A stretch of 64,000 nucleotides of DNA from Escherichia coli (GTDB taxonomy: Bacteria > Pseudomonadota > Gammaproteobacteria > Enterobacterales > Enterobacteriaceae). Shown one piece after another: positions 4,264 through 22,344 of the stretch. The notes under the pieces are model-generated. The model had not been told where the DNA came from, did no database searches, and saw only the letters and a program-made list of their open reading frames with translations. Within the stretch, counting starts at the first letter, position 1. Each line of letters starts with the position of its first letter. The DNA is taken from NCBI RefSeq assembly GCF_001677475.2, contig NZ_CP015229.1; one strand, given 5' to 3'. The translations under genes and the position numbers were made by a program.

Positions 4264-7200
4264 ATGGGTAAAGGCAGCAGTAAGGGGCATACCCCGCGCG
4301 AAGCGAAGGATAACCTGAAGTCCACGCAGTTGCTGAGTGTGATCGATGCCATCAGCGAAGGGCCGGTTGAAGGTCCGGTGGATGGATTAAAAAGCGTGCT
4401 GCTGAACAGTACGCCGGTGCTGGACAGTGAGGGGAATACCAATATCTCCGGTGTCACGGTGGTGTTCCGTGCAGGTGAGCAGGAGCAGACACCGCCGGAG
4501 GGATTTGAATCCTCCGGCTCCGAGACGGTGCTGGGTACGGAAGTGAAGTACGACACGCCGATTACCCGGACCATCACGTCTGCAAACATCGACCGTCTGC
4601 GCTTTACCTTCGGTGTGCAGGCACTGGTGGAAACCACCTCAAAGGGGGACCGGAATCCGTCGGAAGTCCGCCTGCTGGTTCAGATACAACGTAACGGTGG
4701 CTGGGTGACGGAAAAAGACATCACCATTAAGGGAAAAACCACCTCACAGTATCTGGCCTCGGTGGTGGTGGGTAACCTGCCGCCGCGCCCGTTCAGTATC
4801 CGGATGCGCAGGATGACGCCGGACAGCACTACAGACCAGCTGCAGAACAAAACGCTCTGGTCGTCATACACCGAAATCATCGATGTGAAACAGGGCTACC
4901 CGAACACGGCACTGGTCGGTGTACAGGTGGACTCGGAGCAGTTCGGCAGCCAGCAGGTGAGTCGTAATTATCATCTTCGCGGGCGCATTCTGCAGGTGCC
5001 GTCGAACTATAACCCGCAGACGCGGCAATACAGCAGTATCTGGGACGGAACGTTTAAACCGGCATACAGCAACAACATGGCCTGGTGTCTGTGGGATATG
5101 CTGACCCATCCGCGCTACGGCATGGGGAAACGTCTTGGTGCGGCGGATGTGGATAAATGGGCGCTGTATGTCATCGGCCAGTACTGCGACCAGTCAGTGC
5201 CGGACGGCTTTGGCGGCACGGAGCCGCGCATCACCTGTAATGCTTACCTGACAACACAGCGTAAGGCGTGGGATGTGCTCAGTGATTTCTGCTCGGCGAT
5301 GCGCTGTATGCCGGTATGGAACGGGCAGACGCTGACGTTCGTGCAGGACCGGCCGTCGGATAAGGTGTGGACCTATAACCGCAGTAATGTGGTGATGCCG
5401 GATGACGGCGCGCCGTTCCGCTACAGCTTCAGCGCCCTGAAGGACCGCCATAATGCCGTTGAGGTGAACTGGATTGACCCGGACAACGGCTGGGAGACGG
5501 CAACAGAGCTTGTGGAGGACACGCAGGCCATTGCCCGTTACGGTCGTAACGTCACGAAGATGGATGCCTTTGGCTGTACCAGCCGGGGGCAGGCGCACCG
5601 CGCCGGGCTGTGGCTGATTAAAACGGAACTGCTGGAAACGCAGACCGTGGACTTCAGCGTGGGTGCCGAAGGGCTTCGCCATGTGCCGGGCGATATCATT
5701 GAAATCTGCGATGATGACTATGCGGGTATCAGCATCGGTGGTCGCGTGCTGGCGGTGAACAGCCAGACCCGGACGCTGACGCTCGACCGTGAAATCACGC
5801 TGCCATCCTCCGGCACCACTCTGATAAGCCTGGTTGACGGAAATGGCAATCCGGTCAGCGTGGAGGTTCAGTCCGTCACCGACGGCATGAAGGTGAAAGT
5901 GAGCCGTGTTCCTGACGGCGTTGCAGAATACAGCGTGTGGGGGCTGAAGCTGCCGACGCTGCGCCAGCGCCTGTTCCGCTGCGTGAGTATCCGTGAGAAC
6001 GACGACGGCACGTATGCCATCACTGCCGTGCAGCATGTACCGGAAAAAGAAGCCATCGTGGATAACGGGGCGCACTTTGACGGCGACCAGAGCGGCACGG
6101 TGAATGGTGTCACGCCGCCAGCGGTGCAGCACCTTACCGCCGAAGTCACCGCAGACAGCGGGGAGTATCAGGTACTGGCCCGCTGGGACACGCCGAAGGT
6201 GGTGAAGGGCGTGAGCTTCATGCTTCGCCTGACCGTGGCAGCGGACGACGGCAGTGAGCGGCTGGTCAGCACAGCCCGGACGACGGAAACCACATACCGC
6301 TTCAGACAACTGGCGCTGGGGCGTTATATGCTGACGGTCCGGGCGGTAAATGCCCGGGGGCAGCAGGGTGATCCGGCGTCGGTATCGTTCCGGATTGCGG
6401 CACCGGTAGCGCCTGTCACTATTGAACTGATACCGGGGTATTTTCAGATAACGGCGGTCCCGAAACTGGCTGTATATGACCCGACGGTACAGTTTGAGTT
6501 CTGGTTATCGGAAAAGCGGATTATCGATATCAGGCAGGTTGAAACCACAGCCCGCTATCTTGGTACGGCGCTGTACTGGATAGCCTCCGGACCGGATATT
6601 GAGCCGGGCAATAATTATTATTTTTACGTTCGCAGTGTGAATACCGTCGGCAAATCGGCATTTGTGGAGGCTGTTGGCCAGCCGGGTAACGATGCTGAGA
6701 AATATCTCCATTTTTTTGAAGGGAAAATAAACAGCACCCTGCTGGGGCAGGAGCTGAACGATCGTATTAATGCCTCGGCATTGCGCAGTGAAGTTGAGCA
6801 ACTGGAGGATGAGATCAATCAGCAGATAGAGAGTGATATTGCTGAAGTGACCCAAAAAATCGGGGAGACAGAAAACAGCCTCACGCAGCTGGTTGCGAAA
6901 AAAAATGATGAGCTGTCACTGGGTATATCACAGGTGAGCCAGAGAGTGGATAACGTCAGCAGCGAACTCACGCAGACGGTCAGTCAGAGTAATGAGGAGA
7001 ATGCACGCCAGATAGCGCAGGTTCGCCAGTATGTGGATCAAAAAAGCAGTGAAATCATGACGACAACGGACCAGAAGCTGGGAGATCAGGAGGCCACCAT
7101 CCAGCAGATACAAAAGGTTCAGACGGACACCAGTAATAACCTGAACAGTATGTGGGCCGTGAAACTGCAGCAGATGCAGGATGGTCGCCTTTATATTGCG

Positions 7201-11839: not shown

Positions 11840-12355
<516 letters not shown>

Positions 12356-12414
12356 TTAGATCAAAGGAGGAAGAATAAGCAGAAAAAGCCCGCCATAACA
12401 GCGGGCAGGAGGAT

Positions 12415-13548
12415 TTAGAACTGATAAACCAGACCTAAAGCGACAATATCATCGGTAGAGATGCCGTTGGCAGCGTAGAAGCTGTCATCTTCATCCAACA
12501 GGTTGATTTTATAGTCAACATAGGTGGACATGTTTTTATTGAAATAGTAAGTCGCGCCAACATCGGCGTATTTAACCAGATCTTTATCATCAACACCTGC
12601 CGGGTTGTCTGCACCACCGGCAGCGTGCAGGTCACGGCCTTTAGACATCAGGAAAGAGACTGCCGGACGCAGACCAAAATCAAACTGGTACTGTGCAGTA
12701 ACTTCAAAGTTCTGGGTTTTGTTTGCAACAGCATAATCGCTGTCGCCAAACGGGGTCATATTACGCGTTTCTGAATACATGGTTGCCAGGTAAATATTGT
12801 TAGCATCGTATTTTAGCCCAGCAGTCCACGCGTCTGCTTTATCACCACCCGCCGCAGTATGGTTAACCTGGTCATTGGTGCGGTCAGAAGAGGTGTATGC
12901 CGCACCAGCGCTAAAGCCCATGCCTAAATCATATGTTGTGGAAAGACCCCAGCCGTCACCGTTTTCATGGCGAACATCACGTCCGTTGTTGGTGCCTTCC
13001 TGACCATTACTGGCACCTTCGTTGTTACCTTGATACTGCACCGCGAAGTTCAGACCATTTACCAGACCGAAGAAATCAGTATTACGATAAGTCGCGACGC
13101 CATTGGCACGACCAGTCATAAAGTTGTCTGCATTGGTATAAGAGTCACCGCCAAATTCAGGCAGCATATCGGTCCAGCCTTCGATGTCGTACATTACGCC
13201 ATAATTACGTCCGTAATCGAAAGAACCGTAATCTGCAAATTTCAATCCGGCAAATGCCAGACGGGTCCATGACTGGTTTTTTGAGGATTCAGTGTTGTTT
13301 GCCTGAATATTGTATTCCCATTGACCGTAGCCAGTGAGTTGATCGTTAATTTGGGTTTCGCCTTTAAAACCCAGACGCGCATAGCTCTGGTCGCCATCTT
13401 TCGCTGAATTATCAGAAAAATAATGCAGGCCATCAACTTTGCCATACAGATCTAATTTGTTGCCGTCTTTATTATAAACTTCGGCTGCATGTGCAGCACC
13501 TGCGGCGAGCAGGGCAGGAATTAAAAGTGCCAGTACTTTGCTTTTCAT
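12415..13548 (-). CDS. ompN: Outer membrane porin OmpN (OmpC/OmpF family)
   Basis: 377 aa porin with signal peptide and C-terminal ...LVYQF; located between uspF and micC/ydbK as in K-12. Confidence 0.85.
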
Positions 13549-13775
13549 TGAATAAATCCTTTAGTTATTTTATTTGCCTTTTATCCCCATTTCGGGGAGT
13601 GAAAACATCCTAAAGGAGAAGTTCAGTTAGCCGATAAATATCATTTGTTACGCCTTAAGTAAAACCTTAATCAAATAATTCCTCTGAAATGACAATAAGT
13701 CTTGTGAATGTATCGAAGATAATACATACAAAATAAAAATTATACTTTTAATTTGCTATACGTTATTCTGCGCGG

Positions 13776-13884
13776 GTTATATGCCTTTATTGTCACAGAT
13801 TTTATTTTCTGTTGGGCCATTGCATTGCCACTGATTTTCCAACATATAAAAAGACAAGCCCGAACAGTCGTCCGGGCTTTTTTT
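13776..13884 (+). ncRNA. micC: MicC small regulatory RNA (Hfq-dependent, represses ompC)
   Basis: Sequence GTTATATGCCTTTATTGTCACAGATTTTATTTTCTGTTGGGCC...CCCGAACAGTCGTCCGGGCTTTTTTT matches recalled MicC including the terminator hairpin; ompN-ydbK intergenic position. Confidence 0.9.
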
Positions 13885-13913
13885 TAGAATTGGATAATCC
13901 TTATCCAGAGCAT

Positions 13914-16900
13914 TTAATCGGTGTTGCTTTTTTCCGCTTTTCCGGCCATTTGTGCCAGGAAGTCATAGCGTTTTTGCAAATCAGCTGCGGCATCTTTCCA
14001 TAACTGTTCTGCCACTTCTGGCTGCTGCGAATTCAGACGACGGAAACGCTGCTCGTGAAGTAACGTTTCTTCCAGTGCTTCTGACGGCGGGCGTGAATCC
14101 AGCGCCAGCGGCAGTTTGCCTTCATCGGCACGACGCGGATCAAAGCGATATAGCGGCCAGAAGCCGGTAGCAGTGAGTTGGCGCATCTGGTCGTGACTGA
14201 GTGCCAGATCGTAACCATGCTCTTCACACGGGCTATAAGCGATGATCAGCGATGGCCCCGGATACGCTTCCGCTTCCTGAATCGCTTTCACCGTCTGGTT
14301 GAGCTGCGCGCCGAGAGAAATCTGCGCCACATAAACATGACCGTACATCATCATACTGACGCCAAGATCTTTACGCGCTTTACGTTTGCCGTGCTCGCCG
14401 AACTTAGTTACTGCACCCAGCGGTGTCGCTTTCGACGCCTGACCACCGGTGTTGGAATAGCATTGCGTATCCAGCACCAGAATGTTGATGTTTTCCGTCA
14501 AACTCAATACATGATCCAGACCGCCAAAGCCGATATCGTAAGCCCAGCCATCACCACCAATCAGCCAGATTGATTTTTCCACCAGTGCATCTGCGTCACG
14601 TAGCAGTTCATGTGCTTCGGCAACATCGTTGAGTTGCTGGCGTAAAGCTGCAACCTGCTCACGACGAACCTCTGGCGTAGCGTCTGATTTCAACGCCGTC
14701 AGTAATTCCGTCGGGATTTTATCGGCAAATTGATCCAGCAGACGAAGCACGCGGACACGGTGTTGATCGACCGTCAGGCGGAAACCAAGGCCAAATTCGG
14801 CGTTATCTTCAAACAGCGAGTTCGCCCATGCCGGCCCACGACCGTTGGCATCGGTGGTATACGGTGTAGAGGGCAGGTTACCGCCATAAATTGAAGAACA
14901 GCCGGTGGCGTTAGCGATCAACATCCGGTCGCCATAGAGCTGAGTCAGCAATTTAATATACGGCGTCTCGCCACAACCGGAGCAAGCACCTGAATATTCA
15001 AACAGCGGTGTAATCAGCTGCGATGTACGAATATCAATACGTTCCAGTTTGCTACGGTCGATTTCTGGCAGGTTGAGGAAGAAATCGTAATTGATTTTCT
15101 CTTCTTCGACATGTTCCAGGCGCGACATCATATTGATGGCTTTAATCTCTGGATTCTGACGGTCTTTCGCCGGGCAAACTTCGACGCACAGGTTACAACC
15201 GGTGCAATCTTCCGGAGCCACCTGCAAGACATATTTCTGCCCGCGCATATCACGCGATTTCACATCCAGCGAATGCAGGCTGGCAGGGGCGTTTTCCATC
15301 GCTTCAGGCGGTACCACTTTTGCGCGAATAGCTGAGTGTGGGCAAGCGGCGACGCAGTGGTTACATTGGGTACAGAGTTCCTCTTTCCAGATGGGGATCT
15401 CTTCGGCGATATTGCGTTTTTCCCAGCGCGTGGTGCCCATCGGCCAGGTGCCGTCTGGCGGCAGCGCCGAAACGGGGAGGGCATCACCAAGCCCGGCGAG
15501 CATCGCAGCGGTTACGGTTTTCACGAAATCAGGGGCGGCATCGGAAACCACTGGCGGTCGATTGGCGCTGTGCGGATTTACCGGTTGCAACGGAACTTCT
15601 TCTACGGATTCACGCGCCAGCGCCAGAGCCTGCCAGTTGCGCTCCACCAGATCCTGACCTTTGCTACTGTAACTTTTGGCAATCGCACCCTGCAATTCTG
15701 CGAGGGCGCTATCGCCAGGCAGAATTTGCGTCAGATGGAAAAAAGCCATCTGCATGACGGTATTAATACGGGCCGCCAGGCCACATTCGCGGGCGATTTT
15801 CGCTGCGTTAATCACATAGAAGCGCGCTTTTTTCTGGTTTAGCACGGCCTGAACTTCCTGCGGCAAGCGCGACCACACTTCATCTGCGCTGTACGGCGTG
15901 TTGAGCAGGAAAATGCCGCCAGGTTTTAAACGCTCAGCCATCTGATATTTATCGATAAACTGCAACTGGTGGCAGCCAACAAAATCAGCCTGGGAAATGA
16001 GATAAGCGGAACGAATCGGCTGTTCGCTCACGCGAAGGTGAGAAACCGTCAGGCCGCCCGCCTTTTTGGAGTCGTAAACAAAATAGCCCTGTGCGTACCA
16101 CGGCGTGGAATTACCGATAATCTTGATATTGTTTTTGGTCGCGGAAACGCTGCCATCACTACCAAGGCCATAAAACAAGGCTTCCAGTTTCGCCGAGTTT
16201 GGCAGGGTGTTTTCCGGCAACGGCAGTGACAGATTGGTCACATCATCGTAAATACCAACCGTAAAGCGCGCTTTCGGTTTAGCCGCGTTGAGCTCGGCAA
16301 ATACCGCCAGTACACAGTCCGGGCCAAATTCTTTGGATGAAAGACCATAGCGCCCACCAATGACACGGGGCAGGATTTCACGCTCGCCATTATTAAAAGC
16401 TTCTGCCAGTGCGGTCATCACATCCAGATAGAGCGGTTCTGCCTGGGCACCAGGTTCTTTGGTTCTGTCCAGTACCGCCACGCTGCGTACGGATCCCGGC
16501 AGAGCTTGTAGCAAGTGTTTGGCGGAGAAGGGACGGTACAGGCGAACTTTCAGCACGCCAACTTTTTCGCCACGGGTTAGCAATTCATCAACCACTTCTT
16601 CACAGGTGCCAATGGCAGAGCCCATCAGGATAATCACCCGTTCCGCTTGCGGATGCCCGTAATATTCAAACGGCTGATACTGACGACCTGTCGCGGCAGA
16701 GAAATCATTCATCGCCTGTTCAACATGGTCATAGACCGCGTTGTACCATGGGTTGGTGGCTTCGCGAGACTGGAAATAAGTGTCAGGATTGGCGGACGTA
16801 CCGCGGATCACCGGATGTTCCGGGTTGAGTGCCCGGGCGCGATGAGCATCAATTTCGGCCTGCGGCATGAGATCAAGAATCGTGTCATCGGCCAGCGGGA

Positions 16901-17438
16901 CAATTTTATTGATTTCGTGGGACGTGCGGAAACCATCAAAGAAATGAATAAATGGCACGCGGCTTTTCAGCGTCGCGATGTGCGAAATGAGAGCAAAGTC
17001 TTGCGCTTCCTGGACGTTTGCTGCACACAACATCGCGCAACCCGTCTGGCGCACCGCCATGACGTCGGAATGATCGCCAAAAATAGAGAGTGCATGTGTG
17101 GCAACGGTACGTGCCGCTACATGCAGGACAAACGGTGTGAGTTCGCCTGCCAGTTTGTACAGCGTCGGGATCATCAGCAGCAAACCCTGCGATGACGTAA
17201 ACGATGTTGAAAGAGCACCCGTCTGCAAAGCGCCATGCACGGTAGCGATAGCACCCGCTTCCGACTGCATTTCAACCACGCGTGGTGTGTCTCCCCAAAC
17301 GTTCTTCAAGCCGTTTCCGGCCCAGGCATCAGCCTGTTCTGCCATCGTGGAACTGGGGGTAATAGGGTAGATGGCGATAACTTCACTGGTGCGAAACGCC
17401 ACCGAAGCAACCGCGCCATTACCGTCAATAGTAATCAT
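13914..17438 (-). CDS. ydbK: Pyruvate:flavodoxin/ferredoxin oxidoreductase
   Basis: 1174 aa; TPP-binding and two 4Fe-4S ferredoxin motifs (CTQCNHCVAACP, CTGCNLCVEVCP). Confidence 0.95.
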   Translation of the reverse strand: MITIDGNGAVASVAFRTSEVIAIYPITPSSTMAEQADAWAGNGLKNVWGDTPRVVEMQSEAGAIATVHGALQTGALSTSFTSSQGLLLMIPTLYKLAGELTPFVLHVAARTVATHALSIFGDHSDVMAVRQTGCAMLCAANVQEAQDFALISHIATLKSRVPFIHFFDGFRTSHEINKIVPLADDTILDLMPQAEIDAHRARALNPEHPVIRGTSANPDTYFQSREATNPWYNAVYDHVEQAMNDFSAATGRQYQPFEYYGHPQAERVIILMGSAIGTCEEVVDELLTRGEKVGVLKVRLYRPFSAKHLLQALPGSVRSVAVLDRTKEPGAQAEPLYLDVMTALAEAFNNGEREILPRVIGGRYGLSSKEFGPDCVLAVFAELNAAKPKARFTVGIYDDVTNLSLPLPENTLPNSAKLEALFYGLGSDGSVSATKNNIKIIGNSTPWYAQGYFVYDSKKAGGLTVSHLRVSEQPIRSAYLISQADFVGCHQLQFIDKYQMAERLKPGGIFLLNTPYSADEVWSRLPQEVQAVLNQKKARFYVINAAKIARECGLAARINTVMQMAFFHLTQILPGDSALAELQGAIAKSYSSKGQDLVERNWQALALARESVEEVPLQPVNPHSANRPPVVSDAAPDFVKTVTAAMLAGLGDALPVSALPPDGTWPMGTTRWEKRNIAEEIPIWKEELCTQCNHCVAACPHSAIRAKVVPPEAMENAPASLHSLDVKSRDMRGQKYVLQVAPEDCTGCNLCVEVCPAKDRQNPEIKAINMMSRLEHVEEEKINYDFFLNLPEIDRSKLERIDIRTSQLITPLFEYSGACSGCGETPYIKLLTQLYGDRMLIANATGCSSIYGGNLPSTPYTTDANGRGPAWANSLFEDNAEFGLGFRLTVDQHRVRVLRLLDQFADKIPTELLTALKSDATPEVRREQVAALRQQLNDVAEAHELLRDADALVEKSIWLIGGDGWAYDIGFGGLDHVLSLTENINILVLDTQCYSNTGGQASKATPLGAVTKFGEHGKRKARKDLGVSMMMYGHVYVAQISLGAQLNQTVKAIQEAEAYPGPSLIIAYSPCEEHGYDLALSHDQMRQLTATGFWPLYRFDPRRADEGKLPLALDSRPPSEALEETLLHEQRFRRLNSQQPEVAEQLWKDAAADLQKRYDFLAQMAGKAEKSNTD

Positions 17439-17711
17439 ATGACACCCTTACATTGCGCAAATGAGGGGCGCACGAAATTGCTGCGCGCCCAGTAGTAATC
17501 TTTCAATTTTAGCAAATGGCTTTCTTCTGCATTTTCGCTTTTGTGTCCCCCACATCAGCGTAATGAATGTTTTGATCAAACAGAGGGCAAAAAAATAGCC
17601 ATAAAAAAGTAAAAATGCGGGGCAATGCGCAGGACAGCTCTCGACGTCGCCCTCTGTGCTGCCTATTATTTATGGCGGTGTCGTTTGGCTTGAAGATCAG
17701 AGGAAGAAAAG

Positions 17712-17978
17712 ATGCGAGCAGCGTTTTGGGTAGGGTGTGCCGCTTTATTGTTGTCGGCGTGTAGTAGTGAACCTGTTCAGCAGGCGACTGCGGCGCACGT
17801 AGCGCCAGGTTTAAAAGCGTCGATGTCCAGTAGTGGAGAAGCAAATTGTGCAATGATCGGCGGTTCGCTTTCTGTTGCCCGTCAACTGGATGGTACGGCG
17901 ATTGGGATGTGTGCATTACCCAACGGCAAACGCTGTAGCGAACAGTCACTTGCCGCCGGGAGCTGTGGCAGCTATTAA
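17712..17978 (+). CDS. ydbJ: Small putative lipoprotein (DUF333 family)
   Basis: 88 aa with lipobox LLLSAC, RBS AGAGGAAG upstream; K-12 synteny. Confidence 0.8.
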   Translation: MRAAFWVGCAALLLSACSSEPVQQATAAHVAPGLKASMSSSGEANCAMIGGSLSVARQLDGTAIGMCALPNGKRCSEQSLAAGSCGSY

Positions 17979-18397
17979 TTCATTAAATCCGCCAGCTTAT
18001 AAGTTAATGTCTGTTTCGCGGTCGCCAGCGTTAACTGGTTCGCGGTCAGATCCACTTGTGCACCTTCCTTCAGCATGTCGCTAATGGTGTTATCAAGTTC
18101 ATTAAGCTGCGGGTTAGCGCACATCATACGGGTCATTGCCAGCCCTTTGGCTGTCAGTTCACCATTAGACAGTTTGCCTTCACCGCTAAAGCGGTTACAC
18201 ATGCTGCCGGAAATCATCATTTTTTCACCAAAGCTGATTTCTGGCGGATTTTTATCGCTGGTCACGGGCTTACCGTTTACGCTTTCCAGCACAAAGCGAT
18301 GATGCTGTAGCTGTTCTGGCGTTACAGCAATTTTGTCATTACTTACACATCCCGCCATCAGCAGGCTTAGCGCAACAAACGCGGCTACTTTCTTCAT
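17975..18397 (-). CDS. hslJ: Heat-shock lipoprotein HslJ (META domain)
   Basis: 140 aa from MKKVAAFVALSLLMAGC (lipobox); K-12 synteny. Confidence 0.85.
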   Translation of the reverse strand: MKKVAAFVALSLLMAGCVSNDKIAVTPEQLQHHRFVLESVNGKPVTSDKNPPEISFGEKMMISGSMCNRFSGEGKLSNGELTAKGLAMTRMMCANPQLNELDNTISDMLKEGAQVDLTANQLTLATAKQTLTYKLADLMN

Positions 18398-18507
18398 TGT
18401 GGTTCTCAATTACAGTTTCTGACTCAGGACTATTTTAAGAATAGAGAATGAAAGGTCATTGGGGATTATCTGAATCAGCTCCCCTGGATTGCAGGGGAGC
18501 GGCAAGA

Positions 18508-19497
18508 TTAAACCAGTTCGTTCGGGCAGGTTTCGCCTTTTTCCAGATTGCTTAAGTTTTGCAGCGTAGTCTGAGAAATACTGGTCAGAGCTTCTGCTGT
18601 CAGGAATGCCTGGTGCCCGGTAAACAGCACGTTGTGGCAGGCAGACAGGCGACGGAATACGTCATCCTGGATCACGTCGTTGGATTTATCTTCAAAGAAC
18701 AGATCGCGTTCGTTCTCATACACGTCCATACCCAACGAACCAATTTTCTGATTTTTCAGCGCTTCAATAGCCGCCTGAGAATCAATTAATGCACCGCGAC
18801 TGGTATTGACGATCATCACGCCATTTTTCATCTGATCGAAGGCGGCTTCGTTCAAAAGATGGTAGTTTTCCGGTATCAGTGGGCAGTGCAGAGAGATAAC
18901 GTCTGATTCAGAGAACAGGGTTGGCAGATCGACATACTCCACACCGAGTTCCAGCGCCGCCGCACTTGGATACGGATCGAACGCCAGCAGACGCATACCA
19001 AAACCTTTCAGAATGCGCAGCATCGCCACACCGATTTTACCGGTACCGATAACGCCTGCCGTTTTGCCATACATAGTAAAGCCGGTCAGACCTTCCAGAG
19101 AGAAGTTAGCGTCACGGGTACGCTGATACGCGCGGTGAATACGGCGGTTCAGCGTCATCATCATACCGATGGCGTGTTCAGCAACGGCCTCTGGATCATA
19201 GGCTGGAACACGGACTACTTTCAGCCCCAGTTCTTTTGCCGCGTCAAGGTCGACGTTGTTGAAACCGGCACAGCGCAGGGCGATATATTTAACGCCGTGC
19301 TTTTTCAGCTCTTCCAGCACCGGGCGGCTGCCGTCATCGTTTACGAAAATACATACCGCTTCGCAGCCATTGGCAGTTTTAGCGGTTTTTTCCGTCAGCA
19401 GAAAGTCAAAAAATTCCAGCTCAAAGCCAAAGGACTCGTTCACCTGTTGCAGGTACTTCTTGTCGTACTGTTTTGTGCTATAAACGGCGAGTTTCAT
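18508..19497 (-). CDS. ldhA: Fermentative D-lactate dehydrogenase (NAD-dependent)
   Basis: 329 aa D-2-hydroxyacid dehydrogenase with GxGxxG (GVIGTGKIG). Confidence 0.95.
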   Translation of the reverse strand: MKLAVYSTKQYDKKYLQQVNESFGFELEFFDFLLTEKTAKTANGCEAVCIFVNDDGSRPVLEELKKHGVKYIALRCAGFNNVDLDAAKELGLKVVRVPAYDPEAVAEHAIGMMMTLNRRIHRAYQRTRDANFSLEGLTGFTMYGKTAGVIGTGKIGVAMLRILKGFGMRLLAFDPYPSAAALELGVEYVDLPTLFSESDVISLHCPLIPENYHLLNEAAFDQMKNGVMIVNTSRGALIDSQAAIEALKNQKIGSLGMDVYENERDLFFEDKSNDVIQDDVFRRLSACHNVLFTGHQAFLTAEALTSISQTTLQNLSNLEKGETCPNELV

Positions 19498-19704
19498 AAG
19501 ACTTTCTCCAGTGATGTTGAATCACATTTAAGCTACTAAAAATATTTTACAAAATTTCAAATATAATTGAAAGCTATGGCGATATTGAAAAATTCATCAA
19601 CAACTATGCTTAGTGTAGGCGCAACCTTCAACTGAACGGTTAAACATGCCACAATACCCGTATTGAATGCTTAATTTTTCGCTAAATCAGGATATTAACT
19701 ACCC

Positions 19705-22344
19705 ATGCTGGGTAAATATAAAGCCGTTCTCGCGCTGTTATTACTGATTATTCTTGTGCCGTTGACGCTGCTGATGACGCTCGGGCTGTGGGTTCCCACG
19801 CTGGCGGGCATCTGGCTACCGCTCGGGACACGTATTGCATTAGATGAAAGCCCACGCATTACGCGTAAAGGTTTAATCATTCCCGATCTCCGTTATCTGG
19901 TGGGAGATTGTCAGCTTGCGCATATCACCAACGCCAGCCTTTCACATCCCAGCCGCTGGTTATTGAACGTCGGCACGGTAGAACTTGATTCAGCTTGTCT
20001 GGCGAAATTGCCGCAGACGGAGCAATCGCCAGCTGCTCCAAAAACCCTCGCGCAGTGGCAGGCCATGTTGCCTAACACCTGGATCAATATCGATAAACTG
20101 ATTTTTTCTCCCTGGCAGGAATGGCAGGGAAAACTTTCTCTCGCGTTAACCTCTGATATCCAGCAACTGCGTTATCAGGGCGAAAAAGTTAAATTTCAAG
20201 GCCAGTTGAAAGGGCAACAACTTACAGTCAGCGAACTGGATGTCGCCGCGTTTGAAAATCAGCCACCGGTAAAACTGGTGGGGGAATTTACTATGCCGCT
20301 CGTGCCGGATGGACTTCCTGTCAGTGGCCATGCTACTGCGACGTTAAACTTGCCGCAGGAACCGTCACTGGTGGATGCCGAGCTGGACTGGCAGGAAAAT
20401 AGCGGGCAATTGATTGTGCTGGCACGGGATAACGGCGATCCGTTGCTCGATTTGCCGTGGCAAATTACTCGTCAACAATTGACCGTAAGCGATGGTCGCT
20501 GGAGCTGGCCGTATGCAGGTTTTCCTTTGAGTGGCCGACTGGGTGTCAAAGTCGACAACTGGCAGGCAGGGCTTGAGAACGCTCTGGTCAGCGGACGACT
20601 GAGTGTGCTGACCCAGGGGCAAGCGGGTAAGGGCAACGCGGTGCTTAATTTTGGCCCAGGAAAATTAAGTATGGATAACAGCCAGCTGCCTTTGCAGCTG
20701 ACCGGTGAAGCGAAACAGGCGGACCTCATTTTATATGCCCGCTTACCCGCGCAGCTAAGCGGAAGTCTGACTGACCCAACGCTGGCCTTTGAGCCAGGCG
20801 CGTTATTACGTTCGAAGGGAAGAGTCATCGATTCGCTGGACATCGATGAAATCCGTTGGCCATTAGCGGGTGTAAAAGTCACCCAACGTGGTGTTGACGG
20901 ACGTTTGCAGGCCATTTTGCAGGCGCATGAAAATGAACTGGGCGATTTCGTGCTGCATATGGATGGGCTGGCGAATGATTTTCTCCCTGACGCTGGCCGC
21001 TGGCAGTGGCGCTACTGGGGAAAAGGGAGTTTTACACCGATGAATGCCACCTGGGATGTCGCAGGAAAAGGTGAGTGGCATGACAGCACGATTACGCTGA
21101 CCGATCTCTCCACCGGTTTCGACCAGTTACAATACGGTACGATGACGGTAGAAAAGCCGCGATTAATTCTCGACAAGCCCGTCGTCTGGGTACGTGACGC
21201 ACAGCATCCCTCCTTCAGCGGCGCGCTGTCACTGGACGCCGGGCAAACGCTGTTCACTGGCGGCAGTGTGTTACCGCCATCAACCTTAAAATTTAGCGTC
21301 GATGGACGCGAACCGACGTATTTCCTCTTTAAAGGCGATTTACATGCTGGTGAGATTGGCCCGGTTCGGGTAAATGGTCGCTGGGACGGTATTCGTCTGC
21401 GCGGTAACGCCTGGTGGCCTAAACAATCACTGACTGTATTCCAGCCGCTGGTGCCACCCGACTGGAAGATGAACTTACGCGATGGCGAACTGTATGCTCA
21501 GGTCGCATTTTCTGCTGCGCCTGAACAAGGATTCCGCGCGGGAGGGCACGGTGTGTTGAAAGGCGGTAGTGCCTGGATGCCAGATAATCAGGTTAACGGT
21601 GTCGATTTTGTCCTGCCTTTCCGTTTTGCCGATGGAGCCTGGCATCTGGGGACTCGCGGCCCCGTTACGTTGCGAATTGCCGAAGTGATTAATCTGGTGA
21701 CAGCGAAAAATATTACGGCTGATTTGCAAGGGCGCTATCCGTGGACAGAAGAAGAACCATTGCTGTTGACTGATGTTAGCGTCGATGTGTTAGGCGGTAA
21801 CGTGCTGATGAAACAATTACGTATGCCGCAACATGACCCGGCGCTGTTGCGGCTGAATAATCTCTCATCCAGCGAACTGGTTAGCGCCGTCAATCCGAAA
21901 CAATTCGCCATGTCCGGGGCATTTAGTGGTGCATTGCCGTTATGGCTAAACAACGAAAAATGGATAGTGAAAGATGGTTGGCTGGCAAATAGCGGGCCAA
22001 TGACCTTGCGGCTGGATAAAGACACCGCAGATGCGGTGGTGAAAGACAATATGACTGCGGGTTCAGCAATTAACTGGTTGCGCTATATGGAAATTAGCCG
22101 TTCATCGACAAATATTAATTTAGATAATCTCGGTTTATTAACCATGCAGGCCAACATTACAGGTACCAGTCGCGTTGATGGTAAAAGCGGTACGGTAAAC
22201 CTTAATTACCATCATGAAGAGAATATTTTTACGCTGTGGCGCAGTTTACGCTTTGGCGATAATCTCCAGGCATGGTTGGAGCAGAACGCACGTCTGCCGG
22301 GAAATGACTGTCCGCAAGGAAAAGAGTGTGAGGAAAAACAATGA
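19705..22344 (+). CDS. ydbH: AsmA/TamB-like envelope protein YdbH
   Basis: 879 aa with N-terminal TM segment; K-12 synteny. Confidence 0.9.
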   Translation: MLGKYKAVLALLLLIILVPLTLLMTLGLWVPTLAGIWLPLGTRIALDESPRITRKGLIIPDLRYLVGDCQLAHITNASLSHPSRWLLNVGTVELDSACLAKLPQTEQSPAAPKTLAQWQAMLPNTWINIDKLIFSPWQEWQGKLSLALTSDIQQLRYQGEKVKFQGQLKGQQLTVSELDVAAFENQPPVKLVGEFTMPLVPDGLPVSGHATATLNLPQEPSLVDAELDWQENSGQLIVLARDNGDPLLDLPWQITRQQLTVSDGRWSWPYAGFPLSGRLGVKVDNWQAGLENALVSGRLSVLTQGQAGKGNAVLNFGPGKLSMDNSQLPLQLTGEAKQADLILYARLPAQLSGSLTDPTLAFEPGALLRSKGRVIDSLDIDEIRWPLAGVKVTQRGVDGRLQAILQAHENELGDFVLHMDGLANDFLPDAGRWQWRYWGKGSFTPMNATWDVAGKGEWHDSTITLTDLSTGFDQLQYGTMTVEKPRLILDKPVVWVRDAQHPSFSGALSLDAGQTLFTGGSVLPPSTLKFSVDGREPTYFLFKGDLHAGEIGPVRVNGRWDGIRLRGNAWWPKQSLTVFQPLVPPDWKMNLRDGELYAQVAFSAAPEQGFRAGGHGVLKGGSAWMPDNQVNGVDFVLPFRFADGAWHLGTRGPVTLRIAEVINLVTAKNITADLQGRYPWTEEEPLLLTDVSVDVLGGNVLMKQLRMPQHDPALLRLNNLSSSELVSAVNPKQFAMSGAFSGALPLWLNNEKWIVKDGWLANSGPMTLRLDKDTADAVVKDNMTAGSAINWLRYMEISRSSTNINLDNLGLLTMQANITGTSRVDGKSGTVNLNYHHEENIFTLWRSLRFGDNLQAWLEQNARLPGNDCPQGKECEEKQ

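Follow-up and report, generated by a model that had tools for sequence, protein, structure and literature searches.

Several described systems of enterobacteria bear on the locus analysed here. The 5′ untranslated region (UTR) of sodB, together with RyhB and Hfq, is the model RyhB target, and 5′ stem-loops commonly stabilise the mRNAs of these bacteria, as in the case of ompA. The mar/sox/rob promoters, among them the class II promoter micF and the marRAB promoter, form another point of comparison. In E. coli, RNA 3′ ends are commonly located within 5′ UTRs (PMC7815308), and intrinsic terminators and attenuators in such leaders are a further parallel. Finally, converging genes with overlapping transcripts have been catalogued as convergent excludons (PMC12288877).

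In the window, the whole stretch of 64,000 nucleotides of E. coli DNA that was analysed, ydbK (pfo/nifJ) lies on the minus strand at 13914–17438. It is an open reading frame of 1174 aa, identified as a pyruvate:flavodoxin/ferredoxin oxidoreductase gene from the K-12 and RefSeq annotation, and its start codon reads as CAT on the plus strand at 17436–17438. The protein carries the Pfam domains POR_N, POR, EKR, PFOR_II, Fer4 and TPP_enzyme_C. Divergently oriented from it, ydbJ (17712–17978, plus strand, its ATG starting at 17712) encodes a small DUF333 lipoprotein with the lipobox LLSAC, whose amino-acid identity is 85–99% over 80 species loci. This gene converges with hslJ (17975–18397, minus strand, annotated ATG at 18397), which encodes a META-domain lipoprotein; both assignments rest on the open reading frames, the K-12 annotation and Pfam. 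The layout matches that annotated in MG1655 (ydbK 1437260–1440784, ydbJ 1441058–1441324, hslJ 1441321–1441743), and nearly all complete E. coli genomes (5412 of 5426) contain the stretch 17200–18500. The 273-bp divergent control region between ydbK and ydbJ that had been proposed in the original prediction is borne out by the coordinates (17439–17711) and by the K-12 annotation. It differs from that of K-12 by 2 SNPs and, when the spacers of 54 species are aligned, it shows two promoters arranged back to back as well as several blocks of conserved sequence.

The region comprises two annotated and ordinary features of E. coli, the divergent promoter region of ydbK(pfo)/ydbJ and the tail-to-tail junction of ydbJ/hslJ. 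Its annotation, its control by SoxS and sigma-S and its listing as an excludon are already documented, and the sole modestly new item is a hairpin in the ydbK leader. To our overall explanation, which joins the observed anatomy to the roles proposed below for Hfq/RyhB, SoxS and Rho, we assign a probability of about 0.6. The directly shown items taken alone, that is the anatomy, the −10 element, the covariation of the hairpin, the absent marbox, the shared TTAA and the absent terminator, are held with high confidence.

The ydbK promoter is recognisable by its conservation as an extended −10 element, TGCTAAAAT, at 17506–17514 on the minus strand, with a transcription start site (TSS) predicted at about 17499–17502. 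Within this element TTTGCT, A15 and T17 are invariant and variation is confined to A14 and A16. In the spacer alignment, blocks at both the −10 and the −35 positions are conserved. The promoter sits 68–73 nt upstream of the ATG. This agrees with the promoter reported to be used by both E-sigmaS and E-sigma70 “ca. 70 nt upstream” (PMC4447067). A sigma-S ChIP-seq peak is located in the ydbK/ydbJ spacer (PMC4447067), as is an RpoS SELEX peak which converts to about position 17502 (PMC5493296). Aerobic expression of ydbK is very low, and expression is poor under standard conditions (PMC4072538). On the opposite strand, promoter scans in E. coli, Citrobacter and Enterobacter pointed to a promoter-like site for ydbJ, TCGACG-17-TATTAT, at 17641–17669 (plus strand), in which CTCTCGACG and TGCCTATTAT are conserved in the species spacer alignment; the reported ydbJ TSS (1439053 in U00096.2) converts to about 17683 (PMC4447067).

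At the other end of ydbJ, the stop codons of the two converging genes share the TTAA at 17975–17978 (ydbJ TAA at 17976–17978; hslJ TAA at 17977–17975 on the minus strand). The overlapping stops noted in the original prediction were thus found as a 4-bp overlap of the coding sequences, identical in K-12. Of 80 loci compared, 76 have ydbJ and hslJ separated by −7 to +13 bp. The 4-bp overlap is retained in Escherichia and, in the form CTAG, in Raoultella, and the gap has opened to 43–86 bp in Salmonella and two other taxa. As judged from these loci, the two gene ends have abutted closely for a long time. The absence of a terminator, which had also been anticipated, holds: no convincing intrinsic terminator was detected at the junction on either strand, where a single weak plus-strand match (17950–17971) compares with 2.1 expected by chance. 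That match was rejected as a terminator; the bases which pair in it belong to codons for Ala-Ala and Cys-Gly in the conserved C-terminus of YdbJ, and no clear selection on the pairing is seen.

Given the 4-bp overlap of their coding sequences, the ydbJ and hslJ mRNAs must overlap. The predicted overlap of the transcripts is also borne out by the RNA-seq-based ExcludonFinder, with ydbJ–hslJ among the 165 convergent excludons that recur in half or more of 58 RNA-seq samples from MG1655 (PMC12288877). Each convergent transcript would enter the neighbouring gene and their 3′ ends would overlap constitutively. RNA reading through from hslJ, antisense to ydbJ, would cross a stretch resembling a Rho utilisation site in its base composition (17655–17974, minus strand; C 0.33–0.38 and G 0.12–0.26 in 80-nt windows), in which the terminator scan found no minus-strand terminator-like site. 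Since this RNA is C-rich and G-poor, the ends of the two transcripts are probably set by Rho.

From this arrangement we infer that transcriptional interference may occur at ydbJ/hslJ. A stronger proposal treats the overlap as a regulatory excludon, in which transcribing either gene would lower its partner because polymerases collide and RNase III cuts the paired 3′ ends. The catalogued status of this convergent pair, the conservation of the tight junction and the undetectable terminator all speak for such a device. We nevertheless consider it rather unlikely. With a 4-bp overlap already present between the coding sequences, overlap of the transcripts is automatic and the excludon call is trivial; the overlap here begins at the coding sequences and not, as in the convergent excludons with which the pair is catalogued, in long 3′ UTRs. 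Moreover, the opened gaps of Salmonella and two other taxa indicate that tightness is non-essential, and neutral compaction with Rho-dependent ends explains the conserved abutment equally well. In the literature searched, we found neither reciprocal expression of ydbJ and hslJ nor a report of their mutually exclusive expression or processing by RNase III.

The imperfect palindrome, GCGCACGAAATTGCTGCGCGC, to which the original prediction drew attention within the spacer is indeed present, at 17468–17488. It is the DNA counterpart of a stem-loop in the 5′ leader of ydbK (17466–17490, minus strand), composed of a 5′ arm at 17490–17483 (GGGCGCGC), a 9-nt loop and a 3′ arm at 17473–17466 (GUGCGCCC), and followed by a U-rich tract. 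RNAalifold, used de novo, gives the identical helix. Over 47 Enterobacteriaceae species, 97.3% of the cells of the stem pair and double-sided changes occur in 7 of its 8 pairs, while none of 500 shuffles reaches the observed pairing and slid controls give 23–59%. The stem contains 50 G·U pairs when read on the minus, ydbK-sense, strand and none when read on the plus strand, an asymmetry which places the hairpin in the ydbK mRNA leader. Compensatory substitutions, in this alignment, keep the stem across the Enterobacteriaceae on the ydbK-sense strand only; the palindrome is above chance as an RNA pairing and not as a DNA site.

The stem is GC-rich and 8 bp long, with a loop of 9 nt in 44 of the 47 species and a mean ΔG of −10.9 kcal/mol (range −6.2 to −15.2 kcal/mol). 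In 43 of the 47 species 6–7 of the next 9 nt are U, compared with 4 in Escherichia, the window included. Counted from the predicted TSS, the hairpin starts about 10 nt into the leader, 15–16 nt from the −10 element. The leader is retained even where the ydbK promoter differs or where ydbJ is not adjacent. Searches of Rfam (cmscan of 12000–20000 with E-values up to 1) returned only MicC and a sub-threshold Leu_leader, and nothing at 17440–17520. A repeat search did not include the palindrome among its output, probably because its arms are runs of GC dinucleotides.

Between the hairpin and the ydbK start codon lies a second conserved feature, an invariant leader segment of 20 nt, UUGCGCAAUGUAAGGGUGUC (17441–17460, minus strand), in which every position is conserved in at least 90% of 47 aligned rows except 17442, conserved in at least 70%. 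It includes the Shine-Dalgarno sequence AAGGGUG (17449–17443) and an AUG-UAA start-stop (17453–17448). The segment largely coincides with a candidate RyhB pairing site at −19 to −2 of ydbK (17457–17440, minus strand), for which a duplex with RyhB nt 37–55 is predicted. The energy of this duplex, −17.1 kcal/mol, corresponds to a p of about 0.03 when compared with shuffled sequences and places ydbK third among 74 open reading frame starts; 5% of random genomic 31-mers also reach it. When accessibility is taken into account, the interaction amounts to −6.15 kcal/mol and ranks only 17th of 50 among the open reading frame starts of the window. In three divergent leaders of the Kosakonia/Phytobacter type, pairing with the RyhB core is predicted at −20 to −4 (p = 0.004–0.02). 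Folding of duplexes with full-length RyhB was uninformative and was set aside, as it gave unrealistically long duplexes and 0.34 of the shuffles were equally low or lower. The complementarity of the invariant segment to the RyhB core is suggestive only.

We favour a reading in which the hairpin is a cis-acting element of the RNA and no operator, and in which the hairpin-plus-U module beside the ribosome-binding site would be a docking site for Hfq and a small RNA. RyhB nt 37–55 would pair with the invariant segment and translation of the Fe-S enzyme would be blocked under iron scarcity. The ydbK leader has features in common with that of sodB. It belongs to the mRNA of an iron-containing enzyme whose ribosome occupancy drops on a RyhB pulse (PMC4666370), and it has a stem-loop and a U-rich tract before a ribosome-binding region for which pairing with the RyhB core (nt 37–55) is predicted. 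In that experiment the log2 change recorded for ydbK was 1.09 by Ribo-seq (p = 0.011) and 0.30 by RNA-seq (p = 0.41), and the gene was entered as RyhB-repressed at the level of ribosome occupancy and flagged as previously reported (PMC4666370). It differs from sodB in that the pairing is predicted only, with p of about 0.03–0.05, and is no better than chance once accessibility is included. The specific Hfq/RyhB mechanism at this leader has, in our estimate, slightly less than an even chance of being correct. The leader nevertheless offers a concrete candidate site for the reported but unmapped repression by RyhB of pyruvate:flavodoxin oxidoreductase, an enzyme of interest for oxidative-stress physiology and for metabolic engineering.

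More broadly, the covarying hairpin, its U-run and the invariant 20-nt segment could together make up an undescribed, family-wide cis-regulatory RNA module through which RyhB/Hfq, and possibly premature termination, gate an oxygen-labile Fe-S enzyme, iron status being coupled to SoxS/sigma-S transcription that uses an invariant 18-nt block as a non-canonical activator site. We regard this extended proposal as tentative and rather improbable in its entirety.

The hairpin might also be a promoter-proximal, terminator-like attenuator. Were this its main role, it would, with its U-run, act as an intrinsic terminator and halt either the majority of ydbK transcripts, near +40, or read-through from hslJ and ydbJ antisense, so that full-length mRNA would be made only on override. 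The 8-bp GC-rich stem, its mean stability and the 6–7 U that follow it in 43 of 47 species are in keeping with this idea, as is the very low aerobic expression of ydbK. So is the frequency of 3′ ends in E. coli 5′ UTRs (PMC7815308). With terminators and attenuators in such leaders the hairpin shares a GC-rich stem followed by a U-run between promoter and ribosome-binding site. Yet only about 10 nt precede the stem, hence no alternative anti-terminator structure is possible and a competing fold of the kind found in attenuators is lacking. Among the usual features of intrinsic terminators, the stem is of the expected kind (at least 5 bp and GC-rich) whereas the loop, fixed at 9 nt, is long compared with the 3–8 nt expected, and in Escherichia the U-run, with 4 U in 9 nt, is weak. 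The terminator scan, whose loop limit is 8 nt, was silent on the hairpin in E. coli, Citrobacter and Enterobacter. In Term-seq supplements of PMC7815308 ydbK, ydbJ and hslJ are unnamed and no such 3′ end is recorded. Termination as the principal function of the hairpin seems doubtful to us, with roughly one chance in four.

A comparably doubtful interpretation dispenses with small RNAs altogether: the hairpin would do no more than stabilise the 5′ end of ydbK or insulate its folding, and the invariant segment would owe its conservation solely to a ribosome-binding site under unusual constraint. Such a role would be in line with the stabilising stem-loops of other enterobacterial mRNAs such as ompA, and with a RyhB pairing energy which cannot be distinguished from background when accessibility is included. 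The hairpin is, however, preceded by about 10 unpaired nucleotides, more than a classical 5′-end protector allows, and a Shine-Dalgarno sequence alone needs fewer than 20 invariant nucleotides. Removal of the 5′ arm also leaves the predicted accessibility of the Shine-Dalgarno sequence unchanged (0.27 with and 0.25 without this arm in the 47 species). These values also led us to reject the 3′ arm as an anti-Shine-Dalgarno element. The response of ydbK to RyhB at the level of translation (PMC4666370) likewise stands against an interpretation without small RNAs.

That the palindrome is instead a DNA operator for the control of ydbK by SoxS, MarA, Rob or a repressor, whether dimeric or of the AraC type, a role for which it had been a candidate, is highly improbable: it does lie in the control region of a SoxS-dependent gene and just downstream of the promoter, a frequent position for repressors, but its arms differ by genus (GGGCGCGC, GGACTCGC, GGGTCTGT, GAGCCTGT) though pairing is kept, the 50 G·U pairs confined to the ydbK-sense strand are A·C mismatches on the opposite strand and relevant to RNA only, and it has no marbox match. 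Covariation and the strand asymmetry of G·U pairs here separate an RNA stem from a “regulator palindrome”.

A 2012 study by Fabrega is said to describe the dependence of ydbK on SoxS. The status of ydbK as a SoxS target, given in the original prediction, is confirmed by papers which report it as SoxS-dependent and paraquat-inducible (PMC2064960; bioRxiv 10.1101/2020.07.26.219949). The scan for a SoxS/MarA/Rob box which had been suggested as a check gave a different answer. We used the 20-bp marbox consensus AYnGCACnnWnnRYYAAAYn, with 14 scored positions and a threshold of at most 3 mismatches. All 9 known mar/sox/rob promoters used as a positive control yielded a box within this threshold, whereas the ydbK spacer, and the whole interval between 17123 and 17835, contains none. 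The best match in 17400–17760 has 4 mismatches in 14 positions, a level of agreement that occurs 12 times per kb in background sequence. With a position weight matrix made from the 9 recovered sites, the best score in the spacer is 6.4 bits, a level which chance reaches 3 times per kb. A canonical SoxS/MarA/Rob box is absent from the spacer.

SoxS would act on ydbK indirectly or by way of a site that departs from the canonical box. The best candidate for such a site is an asymmetric 18-nt block, GGACACAAAAGCGAAAAT (17531–17548, minus strand), which lies 19 nt upstream of the −10 element and is almost invariant in the 54 species. As a marbox it is poor (6 mismatches in 14 positions; −0.6 bits with the matrix), and a look by eye revealed no convincing match to CRP, FNR, IscR or NsrR half-sites. 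It is placed at about −32 to −49, matching the position of the micF marbox (−51 to −32). In this and in its size of about 18–20 bp the ydbK promoter recalls those of mar/sox/rob, as it does in its SoxS dependence and in its poor −35, a feature typical of activator-dependent promoters. Being SoxS-dependent while carrying an invariant block at the class II position in place of a canonical marbox, ydbK provides a test case for the degeneracy of SoxS sites.

The ORF list agrees with the K-12 and RefSeq annotations on the gene set. This comprises ompN (12415–13548, minus strand), micC (13773–13893, plus; a full-length match to Rfam RF00121 at 125 bits), located between ompN and ydbK as in K-12, ydbK/pfo (13914–17438, minus; Pfam pyruvate:ferredoxin/flavodoxin oxidoreductase), ydbJ (17712–17978, plus; Pfam DUF333), hslJ (17975–18397, minus; Pfam META domain) and ldhA (18508–19497, minus). 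YdbJ and HslJ carry lipoboxes, as judged by eye. The 273 bp spacer between the divergent ydbK and ydbJ (17439–17711) has two SNPs relative to K-12 MG1655, and 17200–18500 is found at ≥95% identity in 5412 of 5426 complete E. coli genomes. Every detail described in the original prediction is matched by sequence and annotation, including the palindrome (17468–17488) and the TTAA common to the ydbJ and hslJ stops (17975–17978; 1441321–1441324 in K-12), and the observation is thus confirmed; its interpretation is supported in part. The region is an ordinary one, most of which has already been documented. One item is modestly new: a stem-loop in the ydbK leader, supported by covariation, together with an invariant segment close to the ribosome-binding site, which may be the RyhB site.

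A search with YdbJ, retaining one genome per species, yielded 80 loci from Escherichia, Citrobacter, Salmonella, Enterobacter, Klebsiella-group genera, Kluyvera, Kosakonia and others, nearly all with ydbK-ydbJ-hslJ synteny. YdbJ (88 aa, DUF333, function unknown) shows 85–99% identity between genera, a constraint which is unusually strong for a small uncharacterised lipoprotein; the convergently encoded HslJ shows just 54–77% outside Escherichia. One 413-bp contig with 98% identity to E. coli ydbJ and the hslJ end (L005, NZ_VLXZ01000060.1) comes from an assembly that carries the name Alkalicoccobacillus porphyridii (a Bacillus relative); the contig name gives low coverage and it is probably a contamination of this assembly.

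The palindrome had been singled out within the control region. In the leader alignment its sequence is not conserved and its pairing is: the arms are GGGCGCGC/GUGCGCCC in Escherichia, GGACUCGC/GCGAGUCC in Citrobacter, GGGUCUGU/ACAGACCC in Enterobacter and GAGCCUGU/ACAGGCUC in Pseudenterobacter. RNAalifold found the helix de novo in 47 distinct species rows aligned on the ydbK-sense strand, with standard pairs in 97.3% of helix cells and both-sided changes in seven of the eight pairs. None of 500 column shuffles attained the observed pairing or covariation score, and sliding the helix partner by 1–3 columns reduced pairing to 23–59%. Besides 314 Watson-Crick cells, the minus strand has 50 G·U and 10 unpaired cells; read on the plus strand, those 50 become A·C, leaving no G·U and 60 non-pairs. 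The retention of pairing while sequence varies, and of G·U on the minus strand only, identifies the palindrome as an RNA stem-loop of the ydbK leader (17490–17466) and not a DNA operator.

The geometry (spacing, loop and U-run) is tightly kept across the 47 species. The -10 lies 15–16 nt from the stem, which would therefore start near +10; 44/47 have a loop of 9 nt, mean dG is -10.9 kcal/mol, and the 9 nt following the stem include 6–7 U in 43/47, Escherichia having just 4. There follows a 20-nt segment, UUGCGCAAUGUAAGGGUGUC (17460–17441, minus), which contains the Shine-Dalgarno and in which all positions but one are invariant or at least 90% conserved. Rfam returned no match to the hairpin or segment. 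The leader is also kept where the ydbK promoter differs (CTATACT -10) or ydbJ is not adjacent. At six loci (L027, L032, L060, L062, L070, L080), where 373 bp to 1.6 kb separate ydbK from ydbJ, ydbK has the same leader; the DNA upstream of it is different, with a CTATACT -10 of sigma-S type and a TTGTGCACTCGAAAGC motif that is conserved. In Kluyvera and Pseudocitrobacter (L051, L053, L057, L065, L074, L077, L082; ~2190–2315) an insertion of 30–55 nt with its own inverted repeats separates the ydbK -10 from the hairpin, which there has a different stem architecture. The invariant leader also includes an AUG-UAA start-stop (17453–17448, minus), in frame with the ydbK AUG, 15 nt upstream of it and not preceded by a Shine-Dalgarno. 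By eye, this AUG starts a 5-codon uORF in L014 and L023, both of Kosakonia/Phytobacter type, with a UGA that overlaps the ydbK AUG; the uORF of L052 has the same terminal UGA and a different sequence, and that of L028 reaches the ydbK AUG without an in-frame stop.

Hairpin and U-run together could form a terminator-like attenuator, as a stem followed by U residues fits. However, an anti-terminator structure is impossible, the loop is long, Escherichia has a weak U-run, and a terminator scan flagged nothing at the hairpin in E. coli, Citrobacter or Enterobacter; the accessible parts of the Term-seq supplements of PMC7815308 mention neither ydbK, ydbJ nor hslJ. An anti-Shine-Dalgarno switch is rejected because predicted Shine-Dalgarno accessibility is the same with or without the 5′ arm.

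We prefer to view the leader as a putative Hfq/sRNA module. YdbK, an Fe-S enzyme, is listed as RyhB-repressed, the effect being seen in ribosome occupancy (log2 1.09, p = 0.011) but not in RNA level (0.30, p = 0.41) (PMC4666370). The invariant segment (-19 to -2) is complementary to the RyhB core (nt 37–55) through two helices of ~7 bp each; the duplex (-17.1 kcal/mol) ranks third among 74 ORF starts (p ~0.03 against shuffles), and 5% of random 31-mers reach its energy. In three loci of Kosakonia/Phytobacter type (L014, L028, L052), with divergent leaders that otherwise have little in common with this one, RyhB nt 42–57 are still predicted to pair at -20 to -4 (p = 0.004–0.02); for L023, also of this type, the best prediction falls at -57 to -44 instead. 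Against these supportive duplex data, inclusion of opening energies leaves only -6.15 kcal/mol (rank 17/50), so that the predicted RyhB site is rated as plausible, with a probability of about 50%. Elsewhere in the window, the ORF starts at 4264 (+) and 31819 (+) give predicted RyhB-core duplexes equal to or better than that of ydbK (-17.3 and -20.5 kcal/mol), and 4264 also ranks first with accessibility (-10.9 kcal/mol).

Footprinting used the 54 of 80 loci with spacers of 255–330 bp. The ydbK extended -10, TGCTAAAAT (17514–17506, minus), is conserved, varying only at the A in alignment positions 14 and 16, and lies 68–73 nt upstream of the ATG. Its position agrees with that of the promoter "ca. 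70 nucleotides upstream" opened in vitro by E-sigmaS and E-sigma70 (PMC4447067); an RpoS genomic-SELEX peak converts to ~17502 (PMC5493296). Nineteen nt upstream of this -10, an asymmetric 18-nt block, GGACACAAAAGCGAAAAT (17548–17531), is nearly invariant and is the best candidate for an activator site of ydbK. Relative to the predicted start it occupies the place of the class II micF marbox (-51 to -32), but it makes a poor marbox, with six mismatches and a score of -0.6 bits. On the ydbJ side, a promoter-like site, TCGACG-17-TATTAT (17641–17669, plus), was picked up by scanning E. coli, Citrobacter and Enterobacter and is conserved; a reported ydbJ TSS converts to ~17683. Citrobacter, Enterobacter and Kluyvera, among others, share a near-perfect palindrome, GCGCATAAATGCGC, some 20 nt upstream of the -35 of ydbJ (e.g. 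L006, ~2405–2420). Its Escherichia counterpart is the degenerate GCGGGGCAATGCGCAG (17617–17632), and the palindrome may be a regulator site which Escherichia has lost.

That ydbK is a SoxS target, as originally predicted, agrees with its described membership of the SoxRS response (PMC2064960; bioRxiv 10.1101/2020.07.26.219949); SoxS-dependent co-regulation of ydbK and ompN is attributed by citing papers to Fabrega et al. 2012. The suggested SoxS/MarA/Rob box scan revealed no recognisable marbox in the spacer: the consensus AYnGCACnnWnnRYYAAAYn has no site with three or fewer mismatches in 17400–17760, where the best sites have four, the background density (12 per kb). SoxS must therefore work through a degenerate site or indirectly. 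As a positive control, nine K-12 regulon promoters (mar, zwf, micF, sodA, fpr, fumC, nfo, inaA, fldA) all gave a box with 0–3 mismatches, no further than 200 bp from the start. With a position weight matrix built from these nine boxes (leave-one-out scores 4.3–13.7 bits), the top spacer site scores 6.4 bits, expected by chance 3 times per kb. The closest three-mismatch sites (17104–17122 and 17836–17854) are within coding sequence; another three-mismatch match (13912–13930, minus) overlaps the ydbK stop, upstream of ompN.

The absence of room for terminators between ydbJ and hslJ, and hence overlap, proved correct: the stops share 4 bp, no convincing terminator was found and the pair is listed as an excludon. 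Their ends nearly coincide across the 80 loci, with gaps of 0 bp (23 loci), 1–11 bp (23), +13 bp (14), -7 bp (8, Kosakonia/Phytobacter) and -4 bp (8 species loci, with TTAA in Escherichia and CTAG in Raoultella, not counting the window itself and two records from E. coli). An intergenic terminator could be accommodated at only four loci, with gaps of 43 bp (two, Salmonella) and 74 or 86 bp (two). The sole terminator-like match in E. coli, against 2.1 expected, is a weak plus-strand hairpin in the final ydbJ codons (17950–17971), whose pairing stems from conserved Ala-Ala and Cys-Gly codons. The hslJ read-through RNA antisense to ydbJ is C-rich and G-poor (C 0.33–0.38, G 0.12–0.26), as would be expected for Rho loading. 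ExcludonFinder places ydbJ-hslJ among 165 convergent excludons seen in ≥50% of 58 MG1655 RNA-seq samples (PMC12288877), a call which is automatic because the coding sequences overlap. A literature search found no report of reciprocal ydbJ/hslJ expression or RNase III involvement; transcriptional interference between the two genes is hypothetical. In some E. coli isolates an IS1A insertion divides hslJ into remnants of 135 and 312 nt (L092, NZ_CP092452.1, 1076–2274, and five further matches), leaving ydbJ and the stop overlap undamaged.
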